In this document: positions 601 to 64,000 of the stretch, in pieces
How positions within the stretch are numbered: position 1 is the first letter of the stretch
Layout: the number at the start of each line of letters is the position of its first letter
Assembly: GCA_964016885.1 (NCBI GenBank)
Contig: OZ024743.1
Coordinates: 257,300,001 to 257,364,000, forward strand
Length of the DNA: 64,000 nt
DNA from: Eledone cirrhosa
Taxonomy: Eukaryota
Direction of reading: 5' to 3'
Made by a program: the position numbers and the translations under genes
The notes under the pieces: generated by a model
What the model was told of the DNA's origin: nothing
The model's input: the letters and a program-made list of their open reading frames with translations, nothing else
Databases searched by the model: none

Positions 601-645
601 GAGAGTAAAACAAAGAAGCCTTCAATACATCAAAAGTCTTTATTA

Positions 646-683
646 GCCGACAATGTTTCGTCATATTAAGGACTCATAAGGGC
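646..683 (-). ncRNA. Minimal type I hammerhead ribozyme motif (variant core CUUAUGA)
   Basis: Minus strand reads GCC-CTTATGA-GTC cttaatat GAC-GAAA-C att GTC-GGC, followed by AATAAA. Confidence 0.65.
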
Positions 684-2486
684 AATTAAAACAACAAGAA
701 GTAATATCGGTAGATACATGCCGGAAGCTCCGAAGAATATGGAGTGTACATACACTAAAGTATTGCAAAAATATATAATAAAAATAATAAAAATATATAA
801 TAAAAATTACTAAGGATGTATATAACATTAAGAACCATATTACAAATATAGTCCAAAGCAAAAAAAAACCTAGAGCTAAACAAAGGTGGTTATATAGAAC
901 AGGAATTATATATAATACAATGTAATATAATATAATATAATATAATATACCTTTACCAACATTAAAATTACAATAAAAATCAAAAGGTACAATATGCATA
1001 TGTATATATGTGCGCACACGTACACACACATACAACAATACACACATCCATCTTCAACTGCACAAATTAAATCTTATTAAGAGTTTGAATACAAAAATAA
1101 GCATGATAGGAATGAAAATAATAATAATAATAATAATACTAATACATCTACCCAATATACATGAGGTAATAATATGATATAATTATAAGTAGCACATATA
1201 ATAAATAATAAATAATACAATTATATACTATATCATACAATATAATAGGATAGATAATCTCCGGTTAATTTACACAAACAATATAGATGTCACAATAATA
1301 ATATAATAATAATATATTAACATTTACAATATACAATATACTAACATTTATAATAAACAATATAAAGGTGCTCAAGTTAACAAATCAATTCATACTGGGT
1401 TACAGAGTCGGTGAGGAAAAATAAATTGTACAATAACCCCAAAAAATGTTGGTGGCACAAAAGTACAAACATCTTACATGATATATAAAGTTTAACATAT
1501 CATAATGTTACATATAATTAACGGTAAGTAATAAGGATCAATATTACAATAAAAAATACAATATAATATAATATATTATATAAAATAAATTAACATAATA
1601 TAATATATAATTACTTATAATTACAAGGTTGGCAGACAGACATGTATATGGATGAGTGAGTAAGTGCCAGACAGTAAATATAATGCACAGTAGTATTACA
1701 AATAAAATACAAAATATAACATATAGAATAAAATAAACAAATAGAATCAACAGGAAATTAAAAAACAAAAACAAACGTATACATTTAGGTCTCACATGCA
1801 GTTAAGTAGTTAGGTAAAAACTAAGGAAACAACCCCTGTAAATGACTCGAAAACCCTATTTGATAAATTAATATTAAAAATATTTAAACTATCCAATAAG
1901 GCAGTATAATATTAGCTATAGTTTAAGTCATTAAAGTTTATAAACGTTAATATTTCGTTACAAATGTTTACAAAAAGGAATGAAAATTTGTTATTATCAT
2001 ATACATAACGATATCTAAAGAACTGACTTAAGCAGAATTAAGGTAGGCTAACAGGGACAGAAATGAAGAAATATATGGAGGATGCAAAGGGGCATAAAAT
2101 ATAGTCGATATACTATATTACATAATAGAAAGGAGCGTAAAAGAGGGGGGGGGGTAAATATAATCATAGTCAATTTGGAGGGGTTGACAATAAGTTTATG
2201 TGCGCATGGGGGCGGGGGGGGGGGGGGGGTCCAAAGAAGAATCCGAATAAAAATAAAAATAAAAATAAGAATAAAATAAAATAAATAGCGTAAAATATAT
2301 AATCTTATATACATTCATAAGGTGTAATAGTGAAAATTTAATGCGTAAGAAGATAGATATGGTACAGTAGCCAAAAGATTATGAGAGCTAGAATAAAGAG
2401 TCATCAAAAACCAATGATAATAATGATGATTATAATAATGTTGGCAAACAAAAGAACCTAAACTAAAAAATAAATAATGGAATATA

Positions 2487-3218
2487 TCAGCTAATGGTAC
2501 AATTTGTACTACTAGAACGTTTAGGTTTATAATAAAAGTATGAATTAGAAATAGCGTGGGGGCAAGAAGAGAATATCTCAGACTTTCTATTAAGTAAAGA
2601 TGCGCTAGAGAAGATTATAGAGTGTGTCTCGAGGATACAGAGATTACAAAACTTAGTATGTGTAGAAAGGTGGTTAGAGCGTGCTACTAAACGCCAGTTA
2701 AGGCTATATGGTATATTAGCTCCCTTAAGATCCCAGATATAATGTGCTAAAGAAGTAGAATTCTTAAACTTAACATGCTTGAAATTAGAGATATGAGAGC
2801 TAAACCTAGTCTTAAAAGTGTTAGATGTAGAGCCTATGTAAGTTCTATTAGAGGAATTAGTTATAACTTCGCAAGCATAGACAATGTTCTTAGAAAGGCA
2901 GTTACCGTTTAAAGGGCAGTTAGCACTCACTCTACAATTGCACTTCCGGGTGTTATTGGTTGACTCAAGTGGTGATGCATTACACGTAGGATTGCTATTA
3001 GATAAGGACTGTTCTGGTGGTAATGCATTGCCAGATCTGTTCAGACTAGTAGTATGTAGAGAGGAGAATCCATCCCTAATTTTCCTATTGTTAGTTCTAG
3101 CTAAATGAGAACTAATATTAGGGGTGGTAGAGAATGAAAGTTTAATAACATTTTTATTAAAAATACTATGGTATTTATGAGAAGGGGGGAAATTTTTCTC
3201 TAAGATAGAGAAGAAAGA

Positions 3219-3220
<2 letters not shown>
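2487..3220 (-). pseudogene. PLE GIY-YIG endonuclease domain with CxC-x5-C-x5-C linker
   Basis: RKCNCRVSANCPLNGNCL..NIVYACEV..RTYIGSTSNTFKTRFSSH..CNLC..LLNRKSE..CPH. The N-terminal (YI)n of the listed ORF is microsatellite. Confidence 0.9.
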
Positions 3221-3287
<67 letters not shown>

Positions 3288-4591: not shown

Positions 4592-5160
4592 TTAGGGAGA
4601 AGTGTTTAGACGGGGTCCGTATTTGTTAATGAAGTAAGATTCCTTGCTGATTCGCTGGGTGTGGGTGGCATTATCTTTTATTTTGTAGAGGGGAAAGATT
4701 CTGAAGTTGGGATGATTTTGGGCGGCACAGGTATCAATGTGTTCACTCAGTGGTATTTTCCTGTATTCCCGTATTTTAATTTGGGATCTATGGACAGTCA
4801 TGCGTTGGCGGAGGCTGATTTTGGTTTGGCCTATGTATTGTTCTCGACAACCTGAACAAGTTAATACATATATTAGATTTTCCGATGCACATGTGAAATT
4901 GTGTTTTACTATAAAACGTTGTCCATCTTTGAAATAGAATTCCGAACCCTCTATTAGGTTGATGCAAATGCCACAGTTGGGTCTATCGCATTTTTTTACT
5001 GTGGGTTTCGTTGTTGTGGTTGGCAGTACTTTGGCATGTGTTAAGATGTTTTTCATTGACTTGGATTGTCTTTTGCTCTTTATGATATCGTGTGTTCGTA
5101 GAATTTGGTTCATTCTATGGTCCTTTTTCAAAACAGGGATGTTCTGGAGGATGGTGTCAA
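4592..5160 (-). pseudogene. PLE GIY-YIG endonuclease with Cys-rich linker
   Basis: KCDRPNCGIC..FTCASENLIYVLTCSGCREQYIGQTKISLRQRMTVH..H..ESYFINKYGPRLN. Confidence 0.9.
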
Positions 5161-5165
5161 AATTA

Positions 5166-5202
5166 TTTTTGAAAAGCATTTAGAAATGCGCAACCGGTAA
5201 AA
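5166..5202 (+). ncRNA. Degenerate HHR-like motif (second copy 3657-3693, minus strand)
   Basis: TTT-TTGAAAA-GCAT ttagaa ATGC-GCAA-CCGGT-A-AAA. HHR topology with the palindromic ACCGGT stem III, but both core boxes are altered. Confidence 0.5.
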
Positions 5203-9089: not shown

Positions 9090-9234
9090 CGCTATATATA
9101 AATAATGGAGCTGGAGCGAATCGTTCACAATTTCTTTTCTTTTTTTCATCTCTTTTCATTTGAAACATGTGTAAGACAAATAAAATGTCTTTAACTTCTT
9201 TCTTCGTCTTGCTTGACTCTCCAGTATTTATCAT

Positions 9235-11310
9235 CATTCTCTGCTAAACACAGAGTTCAAGATTTTGGCCAAGGTGCTAGCAAAGAGGTTGGCGCTTGTC
9301 GTTGGTGGTCTGGTGGGAGAGGCGCAGACATGCGCCATTCCAAACAGATCCATCCACGACAACCTCCACCTCATGCGATACATCGTGGAGAAAGCAGCTA
9401 GGGAACATGGCACGAGTGGGTCCTTGATCAATTTAGATCAGTCGAAAGCTTTCGATAGGCTCGACCATCGTTATCTGGCGGCAGTCCTGAGGGCGGCTGG
9501 CTTTGGGCCCGTCTTCAGAGGCTGGATCGCTGCCATGTACAGCGACATCTGCTCTGTGGTGAGAGTGAACGGTCACCTTTTGGAACCGTTCAACATCATG
9601 CGTTCGGTCCGCCAAGGCAGTCCCCTCTCGTCCCTCTTGTACGTATTGACTCTCGAGCCATTACTGCACAAACTGGAGGCGTTGAGGGGGTCCCGCGCGA
9701 ACTAGGATGCGGAAGGTCCGTGTCAGCATATGCGGACGATGCCACCGTAGTGGTGTCGAACGCCAAACACATCGAGGTGATCGGCACTACACTAAGAGAA
9801 TACGAAGCGGTGACAGGAACAATGATCAACCAGGAAAAGTCAGTGGGCCTGCAGCTCGAACAGCGTCGTCGGACGCTGGACGGACGGACCGGTTAAATTG
9901 CTAGGGGTCTGGTTCGGTCCGGACCTCCAGACGGACAAAAAATGGGACGAGGTGACGAGCAGGGTGGCTTCTCTCACCCAGAAATGGGCGGAGAGAAAGC
10001 TATCCCTGAAAGGTCGAGCGGAGGTGGCTAACGCGTACATCGCGTCCGTCATCTACTACCGCCAGACCATCGTGCCTTGTCCTAAGCCTCGCCTGACTGC
10101 GCTGGAGCGCTTGCTCTTTCGCTTTTTGTGGAAGGGACGCTCTCCGATGGTCAGGCGGTCCATCTGCTGTCAACACCCGCTACGTGGAGGACTGGGCATG
10201 CCGTGGCTGATGATGCGCAGGCACGCGCTCAGGTTACGACATCTCCACCTCTTCCTCGGCGGTGATCAGGTGTGGTCACCGTTTGCTGGACGCGTCTTTC
10301 CCCAGCTCGTCTCCTTGACGGAGCTGCAGTCCTGGCTCAAGCGAAGACCGAGAGGGAGCGCTTGGAGACTGGAATGTCTTCAGGCGCTCACAGCCCTCGA
10401 CCAATCGGGCAATGTGATCGGTGAAAACTCCACCTTGGCGTACTATAGAGGATCAGTGGACAGGAAGAGCGACGACTGCACTTGGGAAAACTCTAGGCGT
10501 CGACGAAAATCAACTAGCCAATCTCTTCGGAAGAACTTTCGTGCCAGGGCCGATGGACAACTTCCAGAAATCCCTGGCCTGGCAGTGCTACCGAGGAGCT
10601 TTGCCAGTTCGGAATAAACTCTACAGGCATGGAGGTGCCGTCAGCCGTGCATGTCCGAGATGCGCGCAGGGCGACGAAACCGTCCTGCACGCACTCGTCC
10701 AGAGTCCGAGCATTGATGACTTGTGGGTTTATGTCGAACACCTGCTGTCACGTGTAGGACGGATCCGGCTATCAGCTGAGTCCAGCGTGAGGATTGCCCC
10801 ACCCTCTTACTTTAGCCGGGAAGGGCAGGCAGTTTTTATCTGTCTGGTGGCCATGGCGAAAGAGATAGTATGGTGGACACGTTTGAAAGGGCTGAAGACG
10901 AGCACTTACCTCTTCGGTGATGCCCTGATTAACCTTTTCAAATTTCATTTAAAAAGGAAAATCAGGGTAGAGAGGGAAGTGCTCTCTTCCCAGCATTTTG
11001 TTGTAAGATGGGTGAGAGAAGCAAGTATGGCCCGAGTGAATGGGCCTACTCTGAGTATGTGTCTGTAAATTAAAGGTGGAAAACTGGGAGAGGGCACTTG
11101 CCCTGGTGGCAAGGGTCACTGTGGGCTTTTAATGGGCTTTCTGCACAAATGTCCCTCAGAAGTCTCCCCCCTATTGGGGAATTTTTCTTTGTTATTTTAT
11201 TACATCCTCTGTTTTTTTACACGCAGAAATGCCCATTTGTACTGTCCTGTATTGTCCTGTACTGTCCTTAATGTCTACTTTATGTAAACCCTTGTGGTTA
11301 ATAAAGAAAA

Positions 11311-16172: not shown

Positions 16173-16243
16173 ATATATATATATATATATATAAAGAATG
16201 AATAATAACAGATAGACATCATAAAAAGGTAATTTATTCCGTG

Positions 16244-16355
16244 TGCTTACAAGTGTTTCCACGGTGGTACTGCAGCCTAGTTATGCTACGTGCAAATTCA
16301 CAAGTACTTGCAGAACTCGAATATCCAATGCTGTGACCACTGTTTCCTCAGAGCA
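16244..16355 (-). ncRNA. Type I HHR with extended stem II (inverted pLTR copy)
   Basis: Reverse complement of 17891-18002. Confidence 0.75.
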
Positions 16356-16570
16356 GAATGGTAAATGTACAATGTAAATACCCTTAAGTGGGGTTGTTGG
16401 GGAAGATAGAGAAGAAAAGAAAGAGAGAAAAGTAGGGAAGAGGGAGAGAGAAAGAAAGATATGCAGGGGTTGGAGAAGTAGGAGAGAGTGGCTTGTAGAT
16501 ATCTTAATCAAAATGTTATGGTAGGGGTTTTATTATACTGGTTACTTTTGGAGAGATGCGTTGATAGTTA

Positions 16571-17396
16571 ACCAGACATACTAATAATAGAAGATCACCA
16601 CTAAATAAATCACGTTGTAGAAAGTATATCTGGTACAATCCTATTTTTAATGCCTCGATTAGTACAAAACTATCTCTTTCATTCTTTAAGTTAATCAACA
16701 AACACTTCCCTAGTTCCCATAAATACAGCAAAATTCTGAACTCTAAAACTATTAGACTATCATACTCCACGGCACCAAACCTTGAAGCATACATAAAAAA
16801 AACTTAACTTAAGGCAATTAAACAACTCTACAAAACAAAACATTTTAGTAACAGATGGGCAGAACGCAATATCTGCCTCCCAACCACTAAATGGGAGATG
16901 GGTATTACACAACCCACCTGTACCGCTATCACAAACTATCCATGGTATACCCGCTACCCACAACAAAGAATGTAACTGCCATCTACCTGAAAGATGTCCA
17001 TTGAAGAATGAATGCCTAAAGTCCAACATTGTTTACCAATGCACGGTTAAATCGAACGACCAGAAATGGTATTATATCGGATCTACCACCACATCGTTTA
17101 AATCTCGCTGGTACCGTCATCGATTCTCAATCAAACATCCGAATCACCGTTTTGTGACCACGCTCGCCAACAAGACCTGGCAACTCCGTGAACACAAGCA
17201 ACAGTTCACCTTAAAATGGGATATACTTTCCAGCTCAAGTGCATATCGGAGTGGATTGAAGTACTGCAGGTTATGTAACCTTGAGCTCTTTTACATATTA
17301 AAATCCCCAAACAAACTACTTAACGATAGAATTGAACGATCATTATACTGCAACCACAAACTAAAAGCTAAATTCTTTCACTATAAAATAACTTAA
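16571..17396 (+). pseudogene. Duplicated PLE linker plus GIY-YIG endonuclease
   Basis: CNCHLPERCPLKNECL..NIVYQC..YYIGSTTTSFKSRW..CRLCNLE..CNH. Confidence 0.9.
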
Positions 17397-17890
17397 CATT
17401 CGAACCCGTAACTATAACACCACTTTCTAGCTAACAACCTTCTCTTCCCCCCACACTACAAGACAATACACTGCTTATCACTATAGATGGTAACTCAGTG
17501 CAATTCCTAGATTACTACTACAAACCCAAAGTTCACTCACCACACATACTTTGTCTGTCCCCTCTCTACCTATGTCTCTCTACATCCATTACACTCTCTT
17601 TCTCTCTCACCTTTGACCTACCTCCCTCTCAACATCTATGAACCTGCCCTCTGGGGCAATAAATAATTCCGACCTTAACTATCAACGCATCTCCCCAAAA
17701 GTAACCAGTATAATAAAACCCCTACCATAACATTTTGATTAAAATATCTACAAGCCACTCTCTCCTACTTCTCCAACCCCTGCATATCTTTCTTTCTCTC
17801 TCCCTCTTCCCTACTTTTCTCTCTTCCTTTTCTACTCTATCTTCCCCAACAACCCCACTTAAGGGTATTTACATTGTACATTTACCATTC

Positions 17891-18002
17891 TGCTCTGAGG
17901 AAACAGTGGTCACAGCATTGGATATTCGAGTTCTGCAAGTACTTGTGAATTTGCACGTAGCATAACTAGGCTTCAGTACCACCGTGGAAACACTTGTAAG
18001 CA
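17891..18002 (+). ncRNA. Type I HHR with 85-nt stem II
   Basis: TGCT-CTGAGGA-A ACAGTGGT..ACCACCGT G-GAAA-CACTTGT-A-AGCA, followed by AATAAA. Confidence 0.75.
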
Positions 18003-18247
18003 CACGGAATAAATTACCTTTTTATGATGTCTACCTGTTATTATTCATTCTTTATATACACTCCGGAATACTGAAGGATCAGGAACTAAGTTTCTTGAAC
18101 AATTCTTCCATAACTCGTAGAGTAACCTCTTACCGTACGTCAACCATATCCAGTGTAGTAATTAACCATTACTACATCTTGGATAATCCTATACCTAATA
18201 ATCGCCTCCTACACAGTTGAGCAACCACACCGACACACGGCATTAAT

Positions 18248-20566
18248 ATGGAAAGGCATCATATAGGTATGTCACTTAAAAACATACCTATACCTAACAA
18301 AAGGGAATATATTCTTAGTATGATTCAACGCAGTAACGACTTCATTCGGCGTGTACGATGGAAAGCTTTCCATTTCGATAAAGGACGCGCCAATCACTCG
18401 TCTGAATCATATGGTTTTAGATCATGTAAAAACCCACCTACAAACCCTCACCTCGATGCTTTCGAACAAGATTTAATGAAAACGACCATGGACATTAAGT
18501 TCAACAAACATAGAAATAATGAGCTGCAGAACAACATGAAAGCACTACTCCGAAGATTGCAAAATACCAATGGAATTGTTGTGAAAGCTGACAAGACTTC
18601 TAACGTGTATACCATGGATATCGATACGTACAATAACTTCATACGCAACGAACTACACAAAAAATATAGAAAAACAAATGAAACTACGCTAGAAAATATT
18701 AACAACGAGGCATATAAAGTGGTGAAGAATCTCAAAATAGACGATAGAACCGAGCCGATTATACCCGCTACCCCCACCTTCAACCTGAAGGACCATAAGG
18801 TAAATTTTGACTCTAACCCTAAGATCAGACTTATATGCCCTTCTAAATCAGACATAGGGAAAATTAGCAAACATATACTTGACAGAGTAATAACTCAAGT
18901 GAAAAAGAAAATTGAAATTAAATTATGAGGCAACACTAGCGAAGCAATTCGCTGGTTTAATAATGTTAAGAATAAGAATAAATCTAAGTTTATACAATTT
19001 GACATAGACGAATACTACTCTTCCATCTCACCAAGCACTTTACGTAAGGCCCTATCGTTTGCTAAGACCAATTCCGACATAACGGAGGACGAAATTAATA
19101 TTATTGTCGAGGCTAGAAAAACCATTATTAAGTTCGATAACTGCTACTGGGAACGTAAGGACAGACCCACAAATTTCGATATTACCATGGGTTCCAACGA
19201 CTCGGCGGAGGTCACGGATCTCGTGGGAATTTACATAGCCCACATATTACATAGTAAATTTAGTAATCTACAGGGGGGGATATACAGAGATGACGAGCTC
19301 TTATTAGTTAATAACTTGAATAACCAAAATCTTGAAAGGCTACGGAAAAATATTAGAAAATCTTTTAGTGAACTGGGTCTAAAAATGACATACGAATACA
19401 ATCTTAAAGTAGTAAACTTTCTGGACGTAACTCTTAATTTAAATACTGGACAGATACGACCCTTCCACAAGGTAAATGAGAACCTTACGTATATTAATTT
19501 TAACTCTAACCACCCACTCTCCATGATCAAATCAGTTCCCCGGAGTATTTCTCTTAGAATCTCTCGCCTATCGTCTAACTCTGATATTTTTAGTGAACAC
19601 GCTGAATAATGCATTAAGGAATGCTGACCACCGGGATACAATAGAATACATCGATAGGAATTTCCATAACACACATAGCTCTACACGAAATCAAGGAATA
19701 CGTAACCGGGGGACTAAAACACAAGCACACACACACAGTACTACCAGACATACTAATAATAGTAGATCACCACCAAATAAATCACGTTGTAGAAAGTATA
19801 TCTGGTACAATCCTATTTTTAATGCCTCGATTAGTACAAAATTATCTCTTTCATTCTTTAAGTTAATCAACAAACACTTCCCTAGTTCCCATAAATACAG
19901 CAAAATTCTGAACTCTAAAACTATTAGACTATCATACTCCACGGCTCCAAACCTTGAAGCATACATAAAAAACTTAACTTAAGGCAATTAAACAACTCTA
20001 CAAAACAAAACATTTTAGTAACAGATGGGCAGAACGCAATATCTGCCTCCCAACCACTAAATGGGAGACGGGTATTACACAACCCACCTGTACCGCTATC
20101 ACAACCTATCCATGGTATACCCGCTACCCACAACAAAGAATGTAACTGCCATCTACCTGAAAGATGTCCATTGAAGAATGAATGCCTAAAGTCCAACATT
20201 GTTTACCAATGCACGGTTAAATCGAACGACCAGAAATGGTATTATATCGGATCTACCACCACATCGTTTAAATCTCGCTGGTACCGTCATCGATTCTCAA
20301 TCAAACATCCGAATCACCATTTTGTGACCACGCTCGCCAACAAGACCTGGCAACTCCGTGAACACAAGCAACAGTTCACCTTGAAGTGGGATATACTTTC
20401 CAGCGCAAGTGCATATCGGAGTGGATTGAAGTACTGCAGGTTATGTAACCTTGAGCTCTTTTACATATTAAAATCCCCAAACAAACTACTTAACGATAGA
20501 ATTGAACGATCATTATACTGCAACCACAAACTAAAAGCTAAATTCTCTCACTATAAAATAACTTAA
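18248..20566 (+). pseudogene. PLE reverse transcriptase + GIY-YIG polyprotein (possibly Hydra-type clade), disrupted
   Basis: SLKNIPIP, ADKT, KDHK, FIQFDIDEYYSSI, FDITMGSNDSAE, YRDD, NFLDVT, SNHP and a C-terminal GIY-YIG. In-frame TGA at 18926, frameshifts near 19607 and 19970. Confidence 0.95.
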
Positions 20567-21058: not shown

Positions 21059-21170
21059 TGCTCTGAGGAAACAGTGGTCACAGCATTGGATATTCGAGTT
21101 CTGCAAGTACTTGTGAATTTGCACGTAGCATAACTAGGCTGTAGTACCACCGTGGAAACACTTGTAAGCA
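21059..21170 (+). ncRNA. Type I HHR with extended stem II (3' pLTR copy)
   Basis: Same motif as 17891-18002. Stem II is further extended by ACAGC/GCTGT. Confidence 0.75.
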
Positions 21171-23952: not shown

Positions 23953-25493
23953 TCATCATCATCATCATCATCATCGTTTAACGTCCATCTTCTACGCTAG
24001 TATGGGTTTGGACGGGAATTTTCCCACTTGAGCCAAGATTGGTTGTCTTGCTCGTATAGGACTGTCTGGCGGGTTTTCTACGGCTGGACGCCCTTCCTAA
24101 CACCAACCACGTTTACAGTGTTGACTGGGAGGTTTTTACCGTGTTACCTACACGGCAACATTACAGCGTGGACTGTGTGTTTTTTTTTGTCGTGACAGCT
24201 ACACGACCTCATTTGTTTCGGACTGGATGTTGTGGTACCAACATAACTTTACATTGTAAGGAATGGTGTGGATGGGGTGGGGTAGGGGTAGTGGGACAAG
24301 GGTGTATTTTTGTTAGAGGTGCCTACTCACTGTAGGATTCGCTTTGTACTTAGGCAAGGCGGGTATTCTGTATTACTGTGTAGCGCCAAAGATCTCGGTC
24401 CAGTGACATTGTCTTGGAGAGGTGTAAGTGTGTGAGGTCGGAATTTATCAAGTCGTCCCAGGTTTTTCTGGGTCTGCCTACTCCGTGGCTACCGTCTATT
24501 TTTATCGCCCTGCACTTTTTTATACAGCTGTCGTTTTTCATGCGCATCACGTGACCATACCAACGTAGTTTTCTCTCGAGTAAACAACATCTGATCCCTC
24601 TTATTCCTAATTCCTCCCTTAGGTCGTTTATGCTTTGTTTGCCGTTCACGTATATTACTATTACACATCCAGCGGAGCATGCAAGCTTCGTTTCTCTCCA
24701 GTCTGCGTATATCCTCTGCACACAATGCCCAGGTCTCACTGCCATGTAACATTGCTGTTCGTATGCAGGCATCATACAGCCTGCCTTTCATTTTTAGAGA
24801 GAACCCTTTAGCGGCCAATAGTGGTATAAGCTCTCTGAACTTTTTCCATCCCGTTTTGACTCTAGCTACTATACTTTCAGAGCACCCTCCCCCACTGCTC
24901 ATTTTGTCACCCAGATAACGGAAGGTGTCCACTATTTCTATAGAACCATCTGTGCAATGGAATGAGCTAGTATTCTGTGGGCACTTGCTGCTACTTATTG
25001 CACCAGAGCACCGGCCACATATAAAATCTATGTTCTTAGTTAGCTTACCTGTGATCCCACTACATCTTTTATGCACCCATACTTTGCATTTGGGACATAA
25101 AATGGAGTTTCTGCCTACTCCTTTCCTACACACTGAGCATGGCCATTTCCCAGATGGGACTGGTGCCCTATTTTTCTTCCTAAAAACTAGAACTTTAGTC
25201 TTAGAGATTAATTTTAAGACCTTTTGATTCTAGGCCATGCTTCCATATTTGGAATTTCTTCTCTACTTCGGCCATTGATTCAGCTATGAGCGTCTGATCA
25301 TCTGCGTATAGGAGTTCCCATGGGCAGCCGGCCTTGAACTCCTCTGTTATAGCCTGAAGGGCAATAATAAATAGGAGGGGGCTAAGGACGCTAAACTCTT
25401 CACTACATTCTTTGTTAATTCTAACCTTGCTGACTGTTTCTTTATACATGGCTTGTATAGCTCTCACAAGCCATTCATCAACACCTAGTTTTC
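23951..25493 (-). mobile_element. 5'-truncated RTE-clade LINE (family 1)
   Basis: ELLYADD, WPCSVC..C..C..WVHKRC Zn insertion, FRYLG, MLHGSETW, LRWYGHV, GRPRKTW. (GAT)n tail. Confidence 0.92.
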
Positions 25494-25494
25494 T

Positions 25495-25880
25495 AATATA
25501 TATAATAGTAGAAAACTGATTTGTTATATCCATATTAGTAGCGCACTCAGTCCATGGGACGAGTTTGATAGAAGTAGTTCATAACAGTTAGTTCACCATA
25601 CCGAGAACAAAAGTTTCACCTTATTTGGATCCTCAGCTCGATCTAAAATCCTAATAAGGTGAAACATTTGTTCTCGGTATGGTGAACTAACTGTTATGAA
25701 CTACTTCTACGAAACTTGCCTATGGACTAAGTGCTCTACTACAACGGATATAACAAACCAGTGTTCTACTATTATATATATAATGTTTCACCTTATTTGG
25801 ATCCTTAGCTCTGTCTAAAATCTGAATAAGGTGAAACATTTGTTCTTGGTATAGCGAACTAACTTTTGTGAACTACTTCT
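25495..25880. repeat. Head-to-head inverted pLTR pair (about 290-bp imperfect palindrome) plus partial duplicate
   Basis: 25495-25625 pairs with 25653-25783. 25785-25880 repeats the centre. Related to 63252-63321. Confidence 0.8.
25603..25639 (-). ncRNA. Minimal type I HHR motif
   Basis: GAG-CTGAGGA-tCC aaataa GGt-GAAA-CTTTTGT-T-CTC. Confidence 0.55.
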
Positions 25881-29968: not shown

Positions 29969-30320
29969 TACCGCCTCTATTGGTCAACACTAACAGAGAG
30001 CGAAAGAGAGCGAAACATGAACTTTCCTCTCTTAAATATGTACGTAGAAACTAATAAATTTTCTTCTCTATTTTATTAGTATTCGTATAAATATGCAATT
30101 TAACTGCACTTTACACTTCCGTCGCTTAAAAAGCATATCATGCTGAAGCCCGTATACAATTAAATGTGGAAATCCCCACTTTATAAATAAATGTTTTGAT
30201 ATTATACTGAAAAAATCCCTCCAGCATTTTCTGCTGTATTTTTTCCTTTTTACTATTCATATATATATATATATAATATGGAAAACGAAGAATCAGTGAT
30301 GCATCAGAATACAATTTATT

Positions 30321-30413
30321 ACATATTACAATTGTTTCTCCGGTGAACAGCTCGAGGTGTGATCTGTTTGTAGATCGAACCTGATTCTGGATTCGCAAGT
30401 TCCTCAGATACGT
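30321..30413 (-). ncRNA. Type I HHR with 62-nt stem II in a solo pLTR-like fragment
   Basis: ACGTAT-CTGAGGA-A..AGGT tc GATCT acaaac AGATC ac ACCT..A-GAAA-CAATTGT-A-ATATGT, followed by AATAAA. Confidence 0.75.
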
Positions 30414-30804
30414 CTAGTGATTTCGAAGCAAATCTTCTTTCTGCTGGACTTCGACCCTTAGAATTTCTATCATCTGCCATCATCCTGTCTGCGTGGCGCA
30501 TCGATTGGTTAATAGTTCGAGATGTCATCTGTGTGTTTGACCATTAAAAACTGCCCACTGACATAAAAAAATATATATGCGGTGAGTATGGAAAAACAGT
30601 TTGTAATGGAATGTTACTGTGGCTGGAACAGAGTGCCTTAGTGATGTGTGATACGGGATTGAGTATACCCATGGAAATTGAACCGCCGTGTCCAGACTAT
30701 TGGGATGGCAGTGTTTAAGATAAAGTTCAGAGTCAAATGTGCAGCATTGTGTGTGTCACTGATTCTTCGTTTTTCATATTATTATACTCTGCTCCGAAGG
30801 AGCA

Positions 30805-30932: not shown

Positions 30933-33206
30933 CCTTTCACTAAAATACAAATTTAGGAAAGCCCTTCAAGATGTGTATGACGAAAAAAGAAGACGATTTA
31001 GAGACGTATGACATAGATAATAACTAAAATTTCTTACGTTACAACTTACTGCAGGCTACTGATGAAACGTGTGGCTGGAGCAGAGCTCCAACCTGACATA
31101 GAGTGACCTTGTGGTGGAACAGGACAGTAGATAAGGTCATTAGAGACAAAAGACTAGCATGGAAGGCTTGGAAAAAGAGTGGGAGTAGAGAAGGATATAC
31201 AGCTGCTAAGAGAGAAGCTAGATGTCAGGTGTACTTAGCACGCAGGGAGGCTGAGAGTAAGAGGTTTGCCAATGTTCTGTGACGGGAAGATCAGAGGTGT
31301 GCGGTATTCCACATTGCAAGGCAGTGTGTCAGTGCAAATCAGGATGTTGTTGGAGATGAGTGTGTCCGGAATGATGCTGGTGTACTTAGTGTTACGAATG
31401 ATCAAAAAAAGGAGGCCTGGAAATGTCATTATGAGAGACTGATGAATGTGGAGAAAAAATGGGAGAGAGAGAAATTACCCGCAGTAGATCCAACAGAGGG
31501 ACCAGCTATTAAGATTGATGAATATAGGGTACAAAGGCGATTAAGGAAATGAAAAATGGTAAGGCTGCAGGACCATCAGGGATAGTTGCTGAGATGCTGA
31601 AGCTATCAGGAGTAGTAGGCACTAAACTGGTTGCACAAATCATCAATCAAGCTATATATGGTGGTGTCACACCCAAAGACTGGTGCAGCAGTGTTCTCAT
31701 AAATTGCTAGAAAGGTAAAGGGGATGCTCTGGAGAGGAGCAAGTATAGAGGTATAAAACTGATGGATCAGATTATGAAAGTGGTAGAAAGGATATTAGCA
31801 CAACTAATTAGAGAAAGGGTCAAACTAGATGAGATGCAGTTAGGTTTTGTACCTGGGAAGAGAACAACAGATGCCCTCTTCTTGGTGAGACAACTACAAG
31901 AGAGGTTCTTAGAGAAAAATAAGCCACTATACTTAGCCTTTGTTGACCTAGAGAAAGCCTTTCATAGAGTACACCGATCTGTCATCTGGTGGTCTCTAAG
32001 GAAACTATGTGTTGAGGAATGGCTTGTGAGGACAGTGCACACTTTGTACAGAGGTACTGTCAGTAAAGTCAGGGTAGGAATGGAGTTTAGTGAGGAATTC
32101 CAGATACAAGTTGGAGTACATCAAGGTTCGGTCCTCAGGCCGTTCTTGTTCATTATAGTCCTCCAAGCCATAACAGAAGAGTTTAAGACTGGCTGTCCAT
32201 GGGAACTTCTCTATGCTGACGATCTGGTTCTTATAGCAGAATCAGTAGAGGAGCTAGAGAATAAATTCTGGCTATGGAAACAGCAGTTCGAAGCAAGAGG
32301 ACTGAGAGTGAACCTAGCTAAGACAAAAGTGTTGATGAGTAGAAAAGAGGACAAAACTCTGATTCCGTCAGGGAAATGGCCATGTTCGATATGAAGAAAA
32401 GGAACTTGCAGAAATTCTATAAAATACACACAATGCAGATCCTGGGTACACAAGAGATGTAGTTGGATAGCAGGCAAACTAACAGGTAGGGAAAAATACG
32501 TATGCAGTAGATGTACAGGGAAATTAGACAGTAGAAGTCGCATTGATAGACACATTTTTCAAATGCAGGCGGTTACTATAGAAGTGGTGAATAGCTTCCA
32601 GTACCTAGGAGATCAGATTAGCATGGGAGGGGGGTGTTCCGAGGCCATAGTATCTAGAATAAGGACGAGTTGGAAGAGGTTTAGGGAGCTGCTTCCTCTG
32701 CTGATGAAGAAGGGTTTCTCCCTGCGTACGAAAGGACGGTTATATGATGTCTGTGTGAGCAGCGCGATGCTGCATGGTAGTGAGACATGGGCAGCAACTG
32801 CAGAGGATATGCAACGGCTGGAGAGAAATGAGGCAAGCTTGCTCCGTTGGAAGTGCAATGTCAATGTGTGTGAACGACCCTGCATGGATGTGTTGAGAGA
32901 GAAACTGTGTTTGAGAGGGATAGAATTTAGTGTGCGAGAGAGGAGACTGAGGTGGTATCGACATGTGTTGCGCATGGAGGATGACCGATGGGTGAAGAAA
33001 TACCAGGAAATGTCAGTTGAAGGAAGACGTGGTAGAGGTAGACCACGAAAAACATGGGCGGAGGTGGTGAGAACAGACCTCATTTCACTGAAGCTCACAG
33101 TGGAGATGACGAAGGACCGTTACAATTGGAGAGATGCTGTGCTGAATAAGACACTTCCCACCCTTGCAAGCAGGGAAAAGCGGACGTAAAATGATGATGA
33201 TGATGA
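30928..33206 (+). mobile_element. 5'-truncated RTE-clade LINE (family 2), disrupted
   Basis: WWN, GKAAGPSG, YRGIKL, FVDLEKAF, GVHQGSVL, LLYADDLV, FQYLG, MLHGSETW, RGRGRPRKTW. (GAT)n tail. Confidence 0.93.
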
Positions 33207-35571: not shown

Positions 35572-36027
35572 ATGTCGAAGTACATGAAATACTTGACATC
35601 CCTTCGCTGTGCATCTCCAATACTTTTAACACTTTTAATGCTTGCACTATTTTTAATGCTTATAACATTTCTCCACACACAGACTATATCAATCATATAA
35701 AGAATTTGCCACCAGATCTACCAACTTAACACTCTTGTTTACCTACATAAGTGCCTCTACCACACATATCTCTCTGCCACACTATATAAACAAGACGCAC
35801 ATGCGTGCCACACATATAACATTTGCACTATATAACCGCTTATCTTCATGTTGTATTTTAACCTGTATTTTTGATTTTTGATTGTACCTCTTAATATGAA
35901 TGTAATCTCGAAGTGTGTACTGCCACTCTAAATTCTGTAATGAATGTTGACCCACAATATTTGCATATGTATTGGTATGTCTCTTGGCTGAAAAGGAGGT
36001 CATAGAACTGTCCATGCATTAATAAAT

Positions 36028-36074
36028 TGCTCCGAAGAATCCAAACCTCGGTTTGGAGGAAACAGCTGTAAGCA
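36028..36074 (+). ncRNA. Type I HHR motif (core CCGAAGA) in a solo pLTR-like fragment at about 35565-36110
   Basis: TGCT-CCGAAGA-A TCCAAAC ctcg GTTTGGA G-GAAA-CAGCTGT-A-AGCA. Confidence 0.7.
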
Positions 36075-36114
36075 TAATAATGTTTTGAACAGTTCTTTGA
36101 TTCTTATATTTCAT

Positions 36115-44321: not shown

Positions 44322-44765
44322 ATCATCATCATCATCATCATCATCAAGGTTTTAAGTCCGTTCTTCCACGCTAGCATAGGTTAGACGGGTTGTCTTGTTG
44401 TGGGCAGTTTCCGGTCAGTTTACCTTGTCTTGCTCATACGGGAACTGATTCTGGCTTGATTTCTACAGCTGGATGCCCTTCCTAACACCAACCTCATTTA
44501 CAGTGAGTGCTGGGTGCTTTTTTTCCGAGGCGCTTACACGTCCACTTTACAGTGTGGGCTGGGTGATTTTTTGCTGTGGGACCTTCACGACCACTTTGCA
44601 GTGGTATGATAGGGACCCCAGTCCTATCATCTCATTTCTAGAGCTGAGTAAACTGGAACAATTTGAAATAAAGTGTCTTGCTCAAGGAAACAACACATCA
44701 CCCAGTCTGAGAATTGAACTCACAACCTTTCGATTGCAAGCCCAATGCTCTAACCACTAAGCCAT
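44322..44765 (-). mobile_element. SINE family B copy
   Basis: Reverse complement of 52417-52750, with an alternative RTE-like tail. Confidence 0.85.
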
Positions 44766-44769
44766 ATAA

Positions 44770-48391: not shown

Positions 48392-48451
48392 TTCCATTTA
48401 CCAGTGGTTTCTTAGAAGCAAAAGGTTTTGCTTTCAATCCTCAGAATGAAA
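48392..48451 (-). ncRNA. Type I HHR
   Basis: Reverse complement of 52142-52201. Confidence 0.8.
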
Positions 48452-48982: not shown

Positions 48983-50485
48983 TTTAACACCTTTCTAGTG
49001 GGTCCGGGTATGTTTTTACATTCATTTAAATTATTGATGTATTGTTTTATTGATTTTTTTATCTGTTTGTCCCGAATCTTCTATTATCGATTTTTTATCG
49101 TATGGTTGATTGTAGACTTGTTCTATGTGTGACGGTATTTTAACGATAGTTATAGCTCTGATTCATCTGAATTATTGAGCCCTCTGCCGCTCATTTCGAA
49201 TATTGTTTATCGTGAACTCGTGCGCCGATTTTTCGATACTCGATCTTTCTAATATTTTTAGCTCTAGACATAGCTATCCACCAGTTAATTTTATTGCTCA
49301 TTTTTTGTCGATTCTATTGAGTGATGAATAGCTCTTGTTTTATTTTAACATGTCTATTGAGCACTCTTATTCGATATGTGTATTTCCACATTTCCTCGAA
49401 TAGTTTTCGCGGATGTAGAGGTTATCTCCCTTGTCAAATTCCATGTGCGTATTTCGCTTGTGGTTAGCCTCTTATCCGCTAGGAAAAAGCTCGTTGATGA
49501 AGTAAACTCCATTCCTCTGGCTCTAGTAGTCTTATATATTTATATGTGAGCTGATAGAGTACAGTCTAAGGATTTACAGAAACCCAAGAAGCTAGATTTA
49601 ACACCTTTCTAGTGGGTCCGGGTATGTTTTTACATTCATTTAAATTATTGATGTATTGTTTTATTGATATTTTTTATCTGTTTGTCCCGAATCTTCTATT
49701 ATCGATTTTTTATCGTATGGTTGATTGTAAACTTGTTCTATGTGTGACGGTATTTTAACGATAGTTATAGCTCTGATTCATCTGAATTATTGAGCCCTCT
49801 GCCGCTCATTTCGAATATTGTTTATCGTGAACTCGTGCGCCGATTTTTCGATACTCTATCTTTCTAATATTTTTAGCTCTAGACATAGCTATCCACCAGT
49901 TAATTTTATTGCTCATTTTTTGTCGATTCTATTGAGTGATGAATAGCTCTTGTTTTATTTTAACATGTCTATTGAGCACTCTTATTCGATATGTGTATTT
50001 CCACATTTCCTCGAATAGTTTTCGCGGATGTAGAGGTTATCTCCCTTGTCAAATTCCATGTGCGTATTTCGCTTGTGGTTAGCCTCTTATCCGCTAGGAA
50101 AAAGCTCGTTGATGAAGTAAACTCCATTCCTCTGGCTCTAGTAGTCTTATATATTTATATGTGAGCTGATAGAGTACAGTCTAAGGATTTACAGAAACCC
50201 AAGAAGCTAGATTTAACACCTTTCTAGTGGGTCCGGGTATGTTTTTACATTCATTTAAATTATTGATGTATTGTTTTATTGATATTTTTTATCTGTTTGT
50301 CCCGAATCTTCTAATATCGATTTTTTATCGTATGGTTGATTGTAGACTTGTTCTATGTGTGACGGTATTTTAACGATAGTTATAGCTCTGATTCATCTGA
50401 ATTATTGAGCCCTCTGCCGCTCATTTCGAATATTGTTTATCGTGAACTCGTGCGCCGATTTTTCGATACTCGATCTTTCTAATAT
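48983..50485 (+). repeat. 615-bp tandem array (about 2.4 units), retrozyme-like
   Basis: Near-identical units start at 48983, 49597 and 50212. HHR-like fold at 49488-49593 and 50103-50208. Confidence 0.92.
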
Positions 50486-50807
50486 ATATATATATATACA
50501 TAAACACAAACACACACACACACACACATATATGTATACATACACACACATAACCATACATAGCTAAACAATTATACACATACAAATACGTACATATCAT
50601 AAACACGCACAACCAAATACAAACACACACACACACACACATACAAATATATATATACACACGCATATATATATACATATATATACACATGCATACACAT
50701 ACACACACACATACATGTATGTGTAAAACTCAGTCTTAGATAATTCATATGAACCTTACATATACATATATATAGTAGTAAAGTAATAAAGCAACATAAG
50801 GCAATTA

Positions 50808-50867
50808 TTCCATTCACCAGTGGTTTCTTAAAAGCAAAAAATGTTTCCTTCAATCTTCAGAATGAAA
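50808..50867 (-). ncRNA. Diverged type I HHR copy (CUGAAGA core, GUG triplet, likely inactive)
   Basis: Direct paralog of 48392-48451. Confidence 0.6.
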
Positions 50868-51346
50868 AAAACCTGGTCTATCCACATATACATACATATA
50901 CACACACAAATATATACATATATATACACATACACATACACACACATACATATATATATATATACATACATATATACATATATATATATATACACACACA
51001 AATATACATACACATACACATAGGTATGTGAAGGGCAAGGCAAAAATAATATATGGGGGGGGGGGCATAAGATAAGGTGAAATATAAGGGGAGGTAAGGG
51101 AGAAAAAAATAAGTAAATAAACAAGAGTACAGAACGTAGAATCAGCAAAATAAAAACCGTAGCAGAAGTAAAGAGCAGAGTAGGAGTTCAAGGCGGTTGA
51201 TTTATCATAGGAGTGTCAATCCAGTTACAGATCAGATGCAACTTCAGATGAGGACAGCATCTGAAGATCTCAGTCTTTGAGTTAAGGCATAATTGTTTAG
51301 CTATGTATGGTTATGTGTGTGTATGTATACATATATGTGTGTTTGT

Positions 51347-52141: not shown

Positions 52142-52201
52142 TTTCATTCTGAGGATTGAAAGCAAAACCTTTTGCTTTTAAGAAACCACTGGTAAATGGA
52201 A
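52142..52201 (+). ncRNA. Type I HHR with intact core
   Basis: TTTCATT-CTGAGGA-TTGAAAGCAAAA cc TTTTGCTTTTAA-GAAA-CCACTGGT-A-AATGGAA. Confidence 0.82.
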
Positions 52202-59068: not shown

Positions 59069-59397
59069 TCATCATCATTATCATCATCATTTTACGTCCG
59101 CTTTTCCCTGCCTGCAAGGGTAGGGCGGGAAATGATTCTGGCTTGATTTCTACAGCTGGATGCCCTTCCTAACACCAACCTGTTTGCTTTTTTTTCCATG
59201 GCGCCTACACGTACACTTTACAGTGGAATGATAGGGACCCCAGTCTCTATCATCTCATTCCTACAGCTGAGTAAACTGGAGCAATTCGAAATAAAGTTAT
59301 CTTGCTCAAGGAAACAACATATCACCTGGTCCGAAAATTGAACTCACAACCTTTCGATTGCAAGCCGAATGCTCTAACCACTAAGCCATGTGCCTCC
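59069..59397 (-). mobile_element. SINE family B copy
   Basis: Reverse complement of 52417-52812 with internal deletions. Confidence 0.85.
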
Positions 59398-62440: not shown

Positions 62441-62596
62441 ATATTACCCACTCTACTACTCTAAGTATTGAGTACTCTGGTGCATTATGGTCCATCTGGT
62501 TCCTTACCACAACTCCTTCGTTATATATATATATATATATAATTCAAGAAAGAAGAGTGACATGGTTGGCTATACAATAAGGGCTTTATTCACATG

Positions 62597-62703
62597 GCTG
62601 ACAATTGTTTCTTTGATCTGGTAGGTCTAGAGTTCGCTAATCGCTTGATGTTGCGTCAATCGATCTCCAATACTTTGTTTATAACCAGTCGTTTCATCAG
62701 AGC
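62597..62703 (-). ncRNA. Type I HHR with 82-nt stem II in a solo pLTR-like fragment
   Basis: GCT-CTGATGA-A acGACTGGT..ATCGATTGA cgcaaca TCAAGCGAT..ACCAGATC aaA-GAAA-CAATTGT-C-AGC, followed by AATAAA. Confidence 0.75.
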
Positions 62704-62805
62704 GTGCGTAAGTGAGGAAAATACTCAAGGCATGGCTTTTATAGAGGAGTGGTGTTAGACCAGAACAATAATATCAATAATAAAATAACTAGATACTGAA
62801 TATCG

Positions 62806-63255: not shown

Positions 63256-64000
63256 GTGGTTACACAACAGTTAGTTCACCATACGGAGAACAATTGTTTC
63301 ACTTTAGCCTATCCTCAGCTCCTAATGGGCATAATTATACGGTACAGGAAGGACAACCGTATAAACGCGCATGCGCAGAAACGCGTCACTTCACACAGGC
63401 AATACTAAAATGCGTGCGAGAGGTGTAAGGGAGATAACTGCGAAAGTCCGAAAAGTTTTTAGTTGATAAGAAAAAATATTGATGTTGTTACAATAATTCA
63501 TTCAATCCGGAGGTTTGTAGTTATGCAATAGGTGTTTCGAGACGTGTGGACGACGTGTGAAAAATTCATTTCTCGTGTTTAGGCAATCACTATTGCATAA
63601 TCTCTTTAGAATATTTATTCGTTCGTCAATACACAGTCCACACGACGGATTTCCCCTTGCGTATGGCTTGGACTTAGTGATGGCTTTCCATTGAATGGAG
63701 TAGTCTATACTTGAGTCCTTGAGGGACCATACGTGACTCGCGAGTTTCGTGGATGAACGTCTGTCCGGGTACCTAAAGTTCGACTGATGGTTCAGGAAAC
63801 GTTCCTTAAATCAGCCCTCCGCCTAGCCCACGTGGGATTTGACCTCTTGTGGTTGGTTTGATCGGTTGGAAGTGACCACAGCTTCATAAATTACAGCTGG
63901 TGTGTTGCATTGCTGTTGAAGGGGGCAAGCTTCGGGCTTACGGCAAGAGCACCCTGGTGGAGTGTTGCTCCTAGGGCTCCTGGTGATTCCTGTTCCGTAT
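63252..64000 (-). mobile_element. PLE 3' end (GIY-YIG pseudogene plus short pLTR), runs off the window
   Basis: 63502-64000 minus: GCSCRKPEACPLQQQCNTPAVIYEA..SHVG*AEG*FKERFLNH..CGLCIDE..CLNTRNE..KPPD*. Not in the ORF track. Confidence 0.88.
63286..63321 (-). ncRNA. Minimal type I HHR motif
   Basis: GAG-CTGAGGA-taggctaaagt-GAAA-CAATTGT-T-CTC. Stem II is weak. Confidence 0.55.

Follow-up and report, generated by a model that had tools for sequence, protein, structure and literature searches.

The window, the 64-kb stretch of DNA analysed here, was scanned on both strands for type I hammerhead cores. Five copies with long stem II arms were identified, representing three families referred to as A (three copies), B and C, and their features are collected in Table 1. 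The initial annotation had reported CUGANGA, GAAA and GUH elements with a pairing stem I at these five places and stem II inserts of 85, 62 and 82 nt; the scan returned all five cores and the same three lengths, and the family A copy furthest upstream, for which no strand had been given, lies on the minus strand. The core (CUGANGA, GAAA and UH) is intact in all five copies, stem III is a 2-bp helix capped by a 4-nt loop, and an AATAAA lies no more than 28 nt downstream. A strict pattern (GAAAC-N4-GTH with a stem I of at least 3 bp) occurred 0.02 times per window in 50 block-wise dinucleotide shuffles, and 0 times when AATAAA was also required. The stem I that closes the core showed two-sided changes in 4 of 6 pairs in the one-module alignment described below and in 2 of 3 pairs in the two-module alignment. 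CTGA, G8 and GAAACA were invariant in the arm-family alignments A1-A3, partly owing to the search pattern.

Table 1 Hammerheads and associated element features in the window.
Feature	Position	Strand	Basis or remark
Inverted 384-nt pLTR piece	16188-16571	-	ends in (TA)n
Third family A hammerhead, within the inverted 384-nt pLTR fragment	16244..16355	-	core 16351-16248; arm 85 nt; stem I 4 bp
GIY-YIG endonuclease, upstream 5'-truncated family A copy	16797..17396	+	PF01541, E 9e-5
Family A type I hammerhead	17891..18002	+	window scan; core 17895-17998; stem I 4 bp
Family A stem I	17891-17894/17999-18002	+	
Family A CUGAGGA	17895-17901	+	
Family A stem II arm	17902-17986	+	85 nt
Family A proximal module	A17917.G17969, bulge 17918, U17919-A17968	+	model R1 alignment
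Family A distal module	A17929.G17960, bulge 17930, U17931-A17959	+	model R1 alignment
Family A GAAA	17987-17990	+	
Family A stem III	17990-17997	+	near-palindromic
Family A predicted cut site	after A17998	+	
AATAAA behind first family A hammerhead	18008-18013	+	
Hydra-clade RT frame, family A	18248..19609	+	RWK and DKT motifs
GIY-YIG endonuclease, downstream family A copy	19958..20566	+	PF01541, E 3e-4, below gathering cut-off
Second direct family A hammerhead, 3' pLTR	21059..21170	+	3168 nt downstream of first; core 21063-21166; arm 85 nt; stem I 4 bp
Family B hammerhead	30321..30413	-	core 30407-30327; arm 30400-30339 (62 nt); stem I 6 bp; stem III perfect palindrome
Family B module	A30386.G30351	-	single, in 62-nt arm
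Family C hammerhead	62597..62703	-	core 62700-62600; arm 62693-62612 (82 nt), two modules; stem I 3 bp; stem III perfect palindrome

Hammerheads with short arms of 11, 12 and 26 nt were also found in the window. The 26-nt type, with a 7-bp stem I and a 9-nt stem III region, forms a family at 52142-52201(+), 48392-48451(-) and 50793-50872(-), two copies of which make an inverted pair. The hammerheads with 11-12-nt arms, at 63285-63322(-) and 25600-25642(-), carry U.U beside the core, and the former lies ~190 nt downstream of a Hydra-type endonuclease (EN) at 63511-63969(-). Degenerate hammerhead-like remnants with altered cores were present at 628-692(-) and 36020-36088(+), with weak model matches (E 0.03-0.05).

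The family A region is a PLE array that comprises an inverted pLTR piece, a 5'-truncated copy, a hammerhead, RT, EN, a hammerhead and a (TA)n tail. The upstream EN stops ~500 nt before the hammerhead, and the RT frame, which begins 250 nt past the predicted cut, is broken by in-frame stops. The family A protein contains RWK, DKT, the CxCX5C linker, CxxC and CxH and is without CCHH, the combination given as diagnostic of the Hydra clade in the text of PMC8557442. The family B hammerhead lies in a truncated 3' end of ~290 nt (about 30276-30563) adjoining (TA)n, and that of family C in a truncated 3' end (about 62542-62805) flanked by (TA)n runs. Copies of family B elsewhere carry a Hydra-type EN and linker 1.2-1.9 kb upstream of the hammerhead, while family C copies elsewhere carry a Hydra-type EN and RT upstream of it, with an RT match to family A of 40-79% and an EN 45-50% identical. 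The junctions of element ends with (TA)n fall at 18058- and 18200-equivalent sites, and the insertion traits of Hydra-type elements were found, namely a (TA)n target, a pLTR, an inverted truncated copy and a tail. Because Hydra-type EN features occur in A, B and C, and RT features in A and C, the three are distinct families of a single clade, as judged from these motifs and homologies, and their earlier description as unrelated PLE families was not upheld. A non-LTR retrozyme, in which short non-coding tandem repeats carry the hammerhead, was rejected as the source, since the hammerheads here either follow EN/RT frames or belong to truncated 3' ends.

Several further repeats were recorded alongside these elements. 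The family B 3' UTR is unusually long (1.2-1.9 kb), with (TG)n-rich tracts between EN and hammerhead (L229, L230). Two additional GIY-YIG frames lie in the window at 2490-3287(-) and 4592-5179(-), one Hydra-type and one of another PLE type. Non-LTR fragments were found at 9217-11068(+) (RVT_1 with zf-RVT), 24489-25578(-) (RVT_1, then a PHD finger) and 31711-33189(+) (RVT_1). Partial tRNA-model matches at 44703-44766(-) and 59331-59388(-), scoring 31.5 and 30 bits and hence just above the gathering score, are possibly tRNA-derived SINE heads. A repeat with a 615-nt period occupies 49055-50584 in three copies, amid nested inverted repeats.

The abundance of long arms was determined across the 3.0-Gb source genome. 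First-look searches with three 181-201-nt queries returned 1910, 2954 and 2553 candidates, of which 40 were scored per query. Genome counts were obtained with exact patterns having the same core and stem III signature, other stem III sequences falling outside the pattern, and reversed patterns in the same spacer bins served as controls. Matches numbered 356 for arms of 8-31 nt (6 reversed-pattern controls), 255 for 32-55 nt (5), 3513 for 56-80 nt with a slightly narrower stem III pattern (3), 3572 for 81-105 nt (2) and 122 for 106-130 nt (4). Arms of 56-105 nt make up ~7,100 of the 7,800 core-pattern matches genome-wide and dominate the genome-wide long-stem-II search that had been proposed for this locus, here run with spacers of 8-130 nt. 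Judged by eye, many 32-55-nt matches resemble deletion derivatives of long arms, and many of 106-130 nt are nested or chance. Among the first 60 long-arm matches fetched, stem I was at least 3 bp in 46, at least 5 of 7 proximal arm pairs were present in 47, and AATAAA or ATTAAA was found in 52.

The same pattern was applied to metagenome and viral contigs. Of 112 metagenome loci, 4 had a stem I of at least 3 bp, 14 had the proximal pairs, 7 had AATAAA/ATTAAA and none had a PLE protein match; of 119 viral loci, 0 had a stem I of at least 3 bp and 5 had the proximal pairs. The pattern matches in both sets are chance-like. In other repeat families flanking the matched loci (L020, L012, L067, L016, L032 and others), the hammerheads have arms of 14-59 nt and other stem III palindromes; the pattern counts thus miss many further hammerhead types in the genome.

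The minimum-energy fold of each long arm in the window is a single interrupted hairpin, as had been noted initially. Stability relative to shuffled sequences varied among families, with z scores of -3.5 and -2.8 for family C, -2.6 for a typical family B copy, -1.0 for the mutated family B copy of the window, and -0.35 and -1.39 for family A (-0.10 in a one-base-shifted copy). Arm stability is by itself convincing only for family C and the typical family B copy; that the family A arm is not above its shuffles counts against the docking explanation developed below.

Covariation was assessed on 160 distinct arms grouped into 61 clusters at ~83% identity. Two sets were hand-picked from these clusters, with short deletion-like arms and odd singletons excluded: a one-module set (A1) of 20 representatives of the ~60-nt type, with a reference structure taken from family B, and a two-module set of 14 C/D-type ~80-nt representatives, to which counting was confined because MAFFT misaligned family A among the 24 longer arms. 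In the one-module set, 78.8% of cells were paired, compared with 29-35% when the structure was slid, and two-sided changes in 24 of 32 pairs were matched by 0-1 of 500 shuffles; RNAalifold independently recovered 11 pairs, all with compensatory changes. In the two-module set, 84.9% of cells were paired and 16 of 29 pairs showed two-sided change, with 0 of 500 shuffles matching on four of five measures and 158 of 500 on the fifth ('further pair types'); RNAalifold independently recovered 17 pairs. Since the clusters share descent and the shuffles ignore relatedness, the shuffle significance is overstated. The proximal arm helix covaries from the second base outward, more weakly in family A. Within the family A lineage (n=7, 85% identical) 86% of cells agree with the structure, but covariation, at 3 of 33 pairs, did not exceed that of shuffles (211 of 500), which also counts against the docking explanation. 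The stem I and stem II covariation that the initial annotation had asked to be checked was thus seen between families, in both sets, but did not rise above shuffles within family A by itself. The arm is very probably a real, selected structure, and the counts and covariation sets together bear out a covarying long-stem-II variant of PLE hammerheads that is real and high-copy.

A recurrent loop module was identified in the arms. It consists of a Watson-Crick pair, an A.G mismatch, one bulged base and then a U-A pair. Arms of ~60 nt have one module, 14 nt from either end, and the C/D-type ~80-nt arms have two, at a spacing of 11 nt along the 5' strand and of 10 nt along the 3' strand, or about one helical turn. 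By a rule-based count, at least one module was found in 31 of 54 clusters (arms 56-98 nt), as against a mean of 11 and a maximum of 20 clusters in 200 runs with shuffled arms, and 16 of 54 for the best alternative letter combination. By length, the strict rule found it in 24 of 32 clusters above 70 nt and 7 of 22 below; its failure in the other 15 shorter clusters counts against the docking explanation. Seven of 8 module bases in the two-module set are at least 90% conserved, a level reached by 15 of the 76 other columns of the arm. For the one-module set the difference is modest (mean conservation 0.72 at module bases and 0.61 elsewhere), and this likewise counts against it.

A covariance model (R1) from which family A had been withheld aligned both modules in each of the three family A copies at 48-49 bits, where the rule-based script had credited each family A representative with a single module. 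On the family B copy the model gave 28 bits in another register, and a motif with a 20-nt arm scored 32 bits, so the core supplies much of the score. With sequence-only arm HMMs, B-type and C/D-type arms gave no cross-match, and the link between the two arm types is therefore one of module and fold rather than sequence; the family A arm reached 5.9, where the highest shuffled score was 2.8. The earlier remark that the inserts share no obvious sequence thus stands for B and C at the level of sequence-only HMMs, but a structured loop module is common to them.

The sarcin-ricin/loop E bulged-G motif is made up of A.A, a bulged G, U.A and then a sheared A.G. The module was rejected as an instance of it, because the pair after U-A is G-U, G-C, C-G or U.U and the bulge may be G, U or A, so that the resemblance is partial at most. 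Three loci, L141:1476-1630(-), L164:1476-1626(-) and L052:1055-1207(+), have 94-98-nt arms that lack the usual module; the first two lie downstream of a Hydra-type EN, and these arms are possibly a third long-arm design.

Arm types were placed on a within-genome EN tree of 22 rows, from which 12 redundant family A rows were left out; in the pairing of L056, L112 and L128, one was relabelled and two were left out. Twelve longer-arm rows (78-90 nt, labelled by length) fell on one side of a 97% branch, and 6 one-module rows grouped at 93%, with the short-arm rows on the one-module side. As the EN outgroup is too distant, the tree is unrooted, and the long-arm history may be a single gain with losses or two gains. 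Judged from these EN sequences, arm type tracks the element's EN lineage. For 35 of 40 family-B-like EN loci, the 2.8 kb downstream contained no recognisable hammerhead; the hammerheads at the other 5 all had 60-63-nt one-module arms.

The pair that closes the arm beside the core was also compared. In the window copies the usual G10.1-C11.1 pair is indeed absent, the arm ends being A..G in family A and A..A in B and C, as initially annotated. As a class trait this was rejected, since the ends vary over the 54 clusters (AA 10, GT 8, TT 8, GC 6, others 22) and U..U stands beside the core in 14 of the 26 published Hydra-clade rows of PMC8557442 File S2. Sister subfamilies of family A have U-G, G-U or A-U at this place, and U.U beside the core is described as natural and tolerated in the texts on other hammerheads (PMC3088659, PMC7229834).

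The long-arm hammerheads were compared with described systems. Published Hydra-clade hammerheads (Craig et al. 2021, PMC8557442) are alike in being type I with a 3'/pLTR position, an intact core and a short palindromic stem III, in the frequent non-G-C pair at 10.1/11.1 and in hosts with RWK, DKT, CxCX5C and (TA)n targets. Their arms, in the 26 rows of File S2, are simple hairpins of 12-26 nt, whereas those described here are multi-helix arms of 56-98 nt with one or two modules, and stem II is thus three to four times the length recorded for catalogued relatives. According to the text of that study, its core-only search used 7-17-nt spacers, relaxed descriptors gave no further matches in its sets, and the Naiad half cores lie 35-50 nt apart. 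The descriptor of Cervera and De la Pena 2014, as given in the text of PMC4209133, specifies a stem II of 3-7 bp, a loop 2 of 3-10 nt and no helix III, and the window copies, whose arms measure 62-85 nt and whose helix III has 2 bp, fall outside it. Searches with such caps (7 bp and 10 nt, or 7-17-nt spacers) would miss long arms, as the initial annotation had supposed for length-limited searches.

The minimal PLE hammerheads of PMC4209133 share the pLTR location, the extra base beside A9, a palindromic helix III and the proposed dimer, and their helix II of 7-8 bp is already called larger than usual in the text. They are without the 2-bp helix III and 4-nt loop found here, and the present arms are much longer. 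Two spike-moss PLE-X1 hammerheads in PMC8557442 File S2, marked as deviating from canonical, have a stem II of ~48-54 nt, so long arms are not wholly unprecedented; by their description they differ in belonging to an EN-minus Chlamys-related clade and in being shorter, with no module reported. PAc, of Poseidon in Anolis, is a PLE pLTR hammerhead and a model for protein assistance, but by the text of PMC11167929 its short stem II overlaps the start codon, while the family A ORF begins well after the cut. In the discontinuous Clec2 hammerheads a large insertion likewise hides the ribozyme from length-limited searches; these are mammalian mRNA motifs with loop 1 or loop 3 insertions by the text of PMC2950038, and the insertion here is a structured stem II in a transposon.

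Rfam returned no hammerhead among the best 150 of 182 window matches, and none at gathering threshold in 12 loci. Short-arm hammerheads are missed as well, so this failure is not specific to long arms. The text of a 2026 retrozyme preprint describes the use of canonical and minimal models (10.64898/2026.07.22.740005). In the literature searched, mostly open-access text without figures, no description of a modular stem II of 56-98 nt was found, and on the question raised earlier, whether an existing model covers long-stem-II PLE hammerheads, none was found in Rfam or in that text. The long-arm hammerhead is apparently an undescribed structural variant of the known PLE hammerhead, and the A.G mismatch, bulged base and U-A module repeated in its arms is a new observation.

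Fixed non-canonical loops in covarying helices, on one helical face and tracking the protein lineage, would suit a protein docking site. The preferred explanation, offered tentatively and as something a little short of probable, is that these are Hydra-clade pLTR hammerheads that would cut as dimers and whose stem II arm would be a docking site for the element's own RT-endonuclease. A tandem transcript with two pLTR copies (3168 nt apart in family A) would allow the stem III palindromes of the two copies to pair and form active cores, with cleavage after GUH (A17998 in family A), likely as a dimer. The RT-endonuclease would dock on the module or modules along one face of the long arm and, once bound, would bias folding towards the active form and single out the RNA for reverse transcription in cis.

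The published accounts provide parts of such a mechanism. PLE minimal hammerheads are described as cleaving weakly and as dimers (PMC4209133), a dimer model with a palindromic helix III is set out in PMC4209133 and PMC6765202, and for the Anolis PAc hammerhead the text of PMC11167929 reports cleavage only once its own protein was added. The 8-nt stem III region pairs at 8 of 8 bases in families B and C, with a self-duplex of -6.4 kcal/mol, and at 6 of 8 in family A, and the suggestion that a palindromic stem III suits the dimer model agrees with these values. The two central C.U mismatches of family A, which leave its self-duplex at -1.1 kcal/mol, count against the preferred explanation. So does the cost of the hammerhead fold, 3-7 kcal/mol above the minimum-energy fold in all five contexts, although such a cost also makes help in folding plausible. 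Two further points weigh against protein docking: PAc hammerhead mutants were not impaired for insertion in vitro, by the same text (PMC11167929), and Hydra elements with 11-20-nt arms have also multiplied in this genome, so the arm is not required for transposition. A bolder form of the proposal, which is possible but doubtful, is that the A.G/bulge/U-A loop would be a cis-recognition element by which the RT-endonuclease picks and activates its own RNA, in a modular arm duplicated one turn apart in some lineages; these would then be the first natural hammerheads with a dedicated stem II protein-docking domain.

The arm could instead act as an RNA-only activator, its modules or A-rich internal loop docking onto stem I or the dimer partner in place of the loop I-loop II contact that canonical hammerheads use, a reading considered unlikely. 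Conserved non-canonical loops are typical tertiary docking sites, and stem I is extendable in families A and C. Contacts between stem I and stem II are needed by canonical hammerheads according to the texts of PMC7229834 and PMC3088659. Against this, the modules lie 14-33 nt from the core, at a distance that varies by lineage and is beyond the 4-bp canonical helix II, and the complementarity of arm loops to flanks is not family-specific, either upstream (own 10.6, cross 10.1) or downstream (own 10.4, cross 10.5). No signal for a pseudoknot between arm loops and flanks was obtained in this comparison, which is blind to non-canonical contacts.

It is improbable that the arm is a tolerated expansion in which selection acts on the closed helix alone and the module is inherited or incidental. 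PLE hammerheads in the genome do have arms of many lengths (11-98 nt), a few 94-98-nt arms are without the module (L141, L052), B-type and C-type arms are without sequence homology, and the clusters are not independent, all of which such an expansion would accommodate. Arm lengths nevertheless fall into two groups, 56-62 nt and 75-90 nt, which take in 58 of the first 60 long-arm matches fetched; module bases are fixed while the helices turn over, and the same module occurs in lineages on either side of the deepest EN branch.

Least convincing, and quite improbable, is a role for the arm in binding a host factor or in controlling 3'-end formation at the adjacent AAUAAA, with the upstream pLTR read through, the downstream pLTR processed and cleavage secondary or absent: AATAAA or ATTAAA does lie within 26 nt downstream in 42 of 54 clusters, and RNA-seq showed no ends at the PAc cut site by the text of PMC11167929, but AATAAA also follows short-arm hammerheads and so does not explain the arm, and arm type tracks the EN lineage, as would fit an element-encoded partner, a pattern that shared descent alone would also give. 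An extended stem I of family A is predicted at 17876-18014(+) and would pair with part of AAUAAA, in keeping with such a role; this pairing could mask the poly(A) signal of the upstream repeat before cleavage. AATAAA was rejected as a class marker; it does follow all five window copies, as first noted, but it is common to short-arm PLE hammerheads both in this genome and in the published rows (text of PMC4209133).

The variant is larger in scale and more structured than the initial annotation saw, with different hallmarks. Length-capped descriptors undercount such ribozymes, about nine-tenths of the core-pattern matches in this genome lying beyond the published limits, and elements elsewhere scored as hammerhead-less or as having a 'half core' may need re-screening. 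The arm bears on the role of hammerheads in PLEs and on the way in which the protein of a PLE finds its own RNA; minimal hammerheads are poor cleavers, and one depends on the protein of its element. A family-diverse set of thousands of copies with a covarying arm and a repeated loop allows mutants that would separate protein assistance from RNA tertiary docking and from dimerisation. If the module is indeed a cis-recognition element, it would provide a defined handle on template choice by PLEs.
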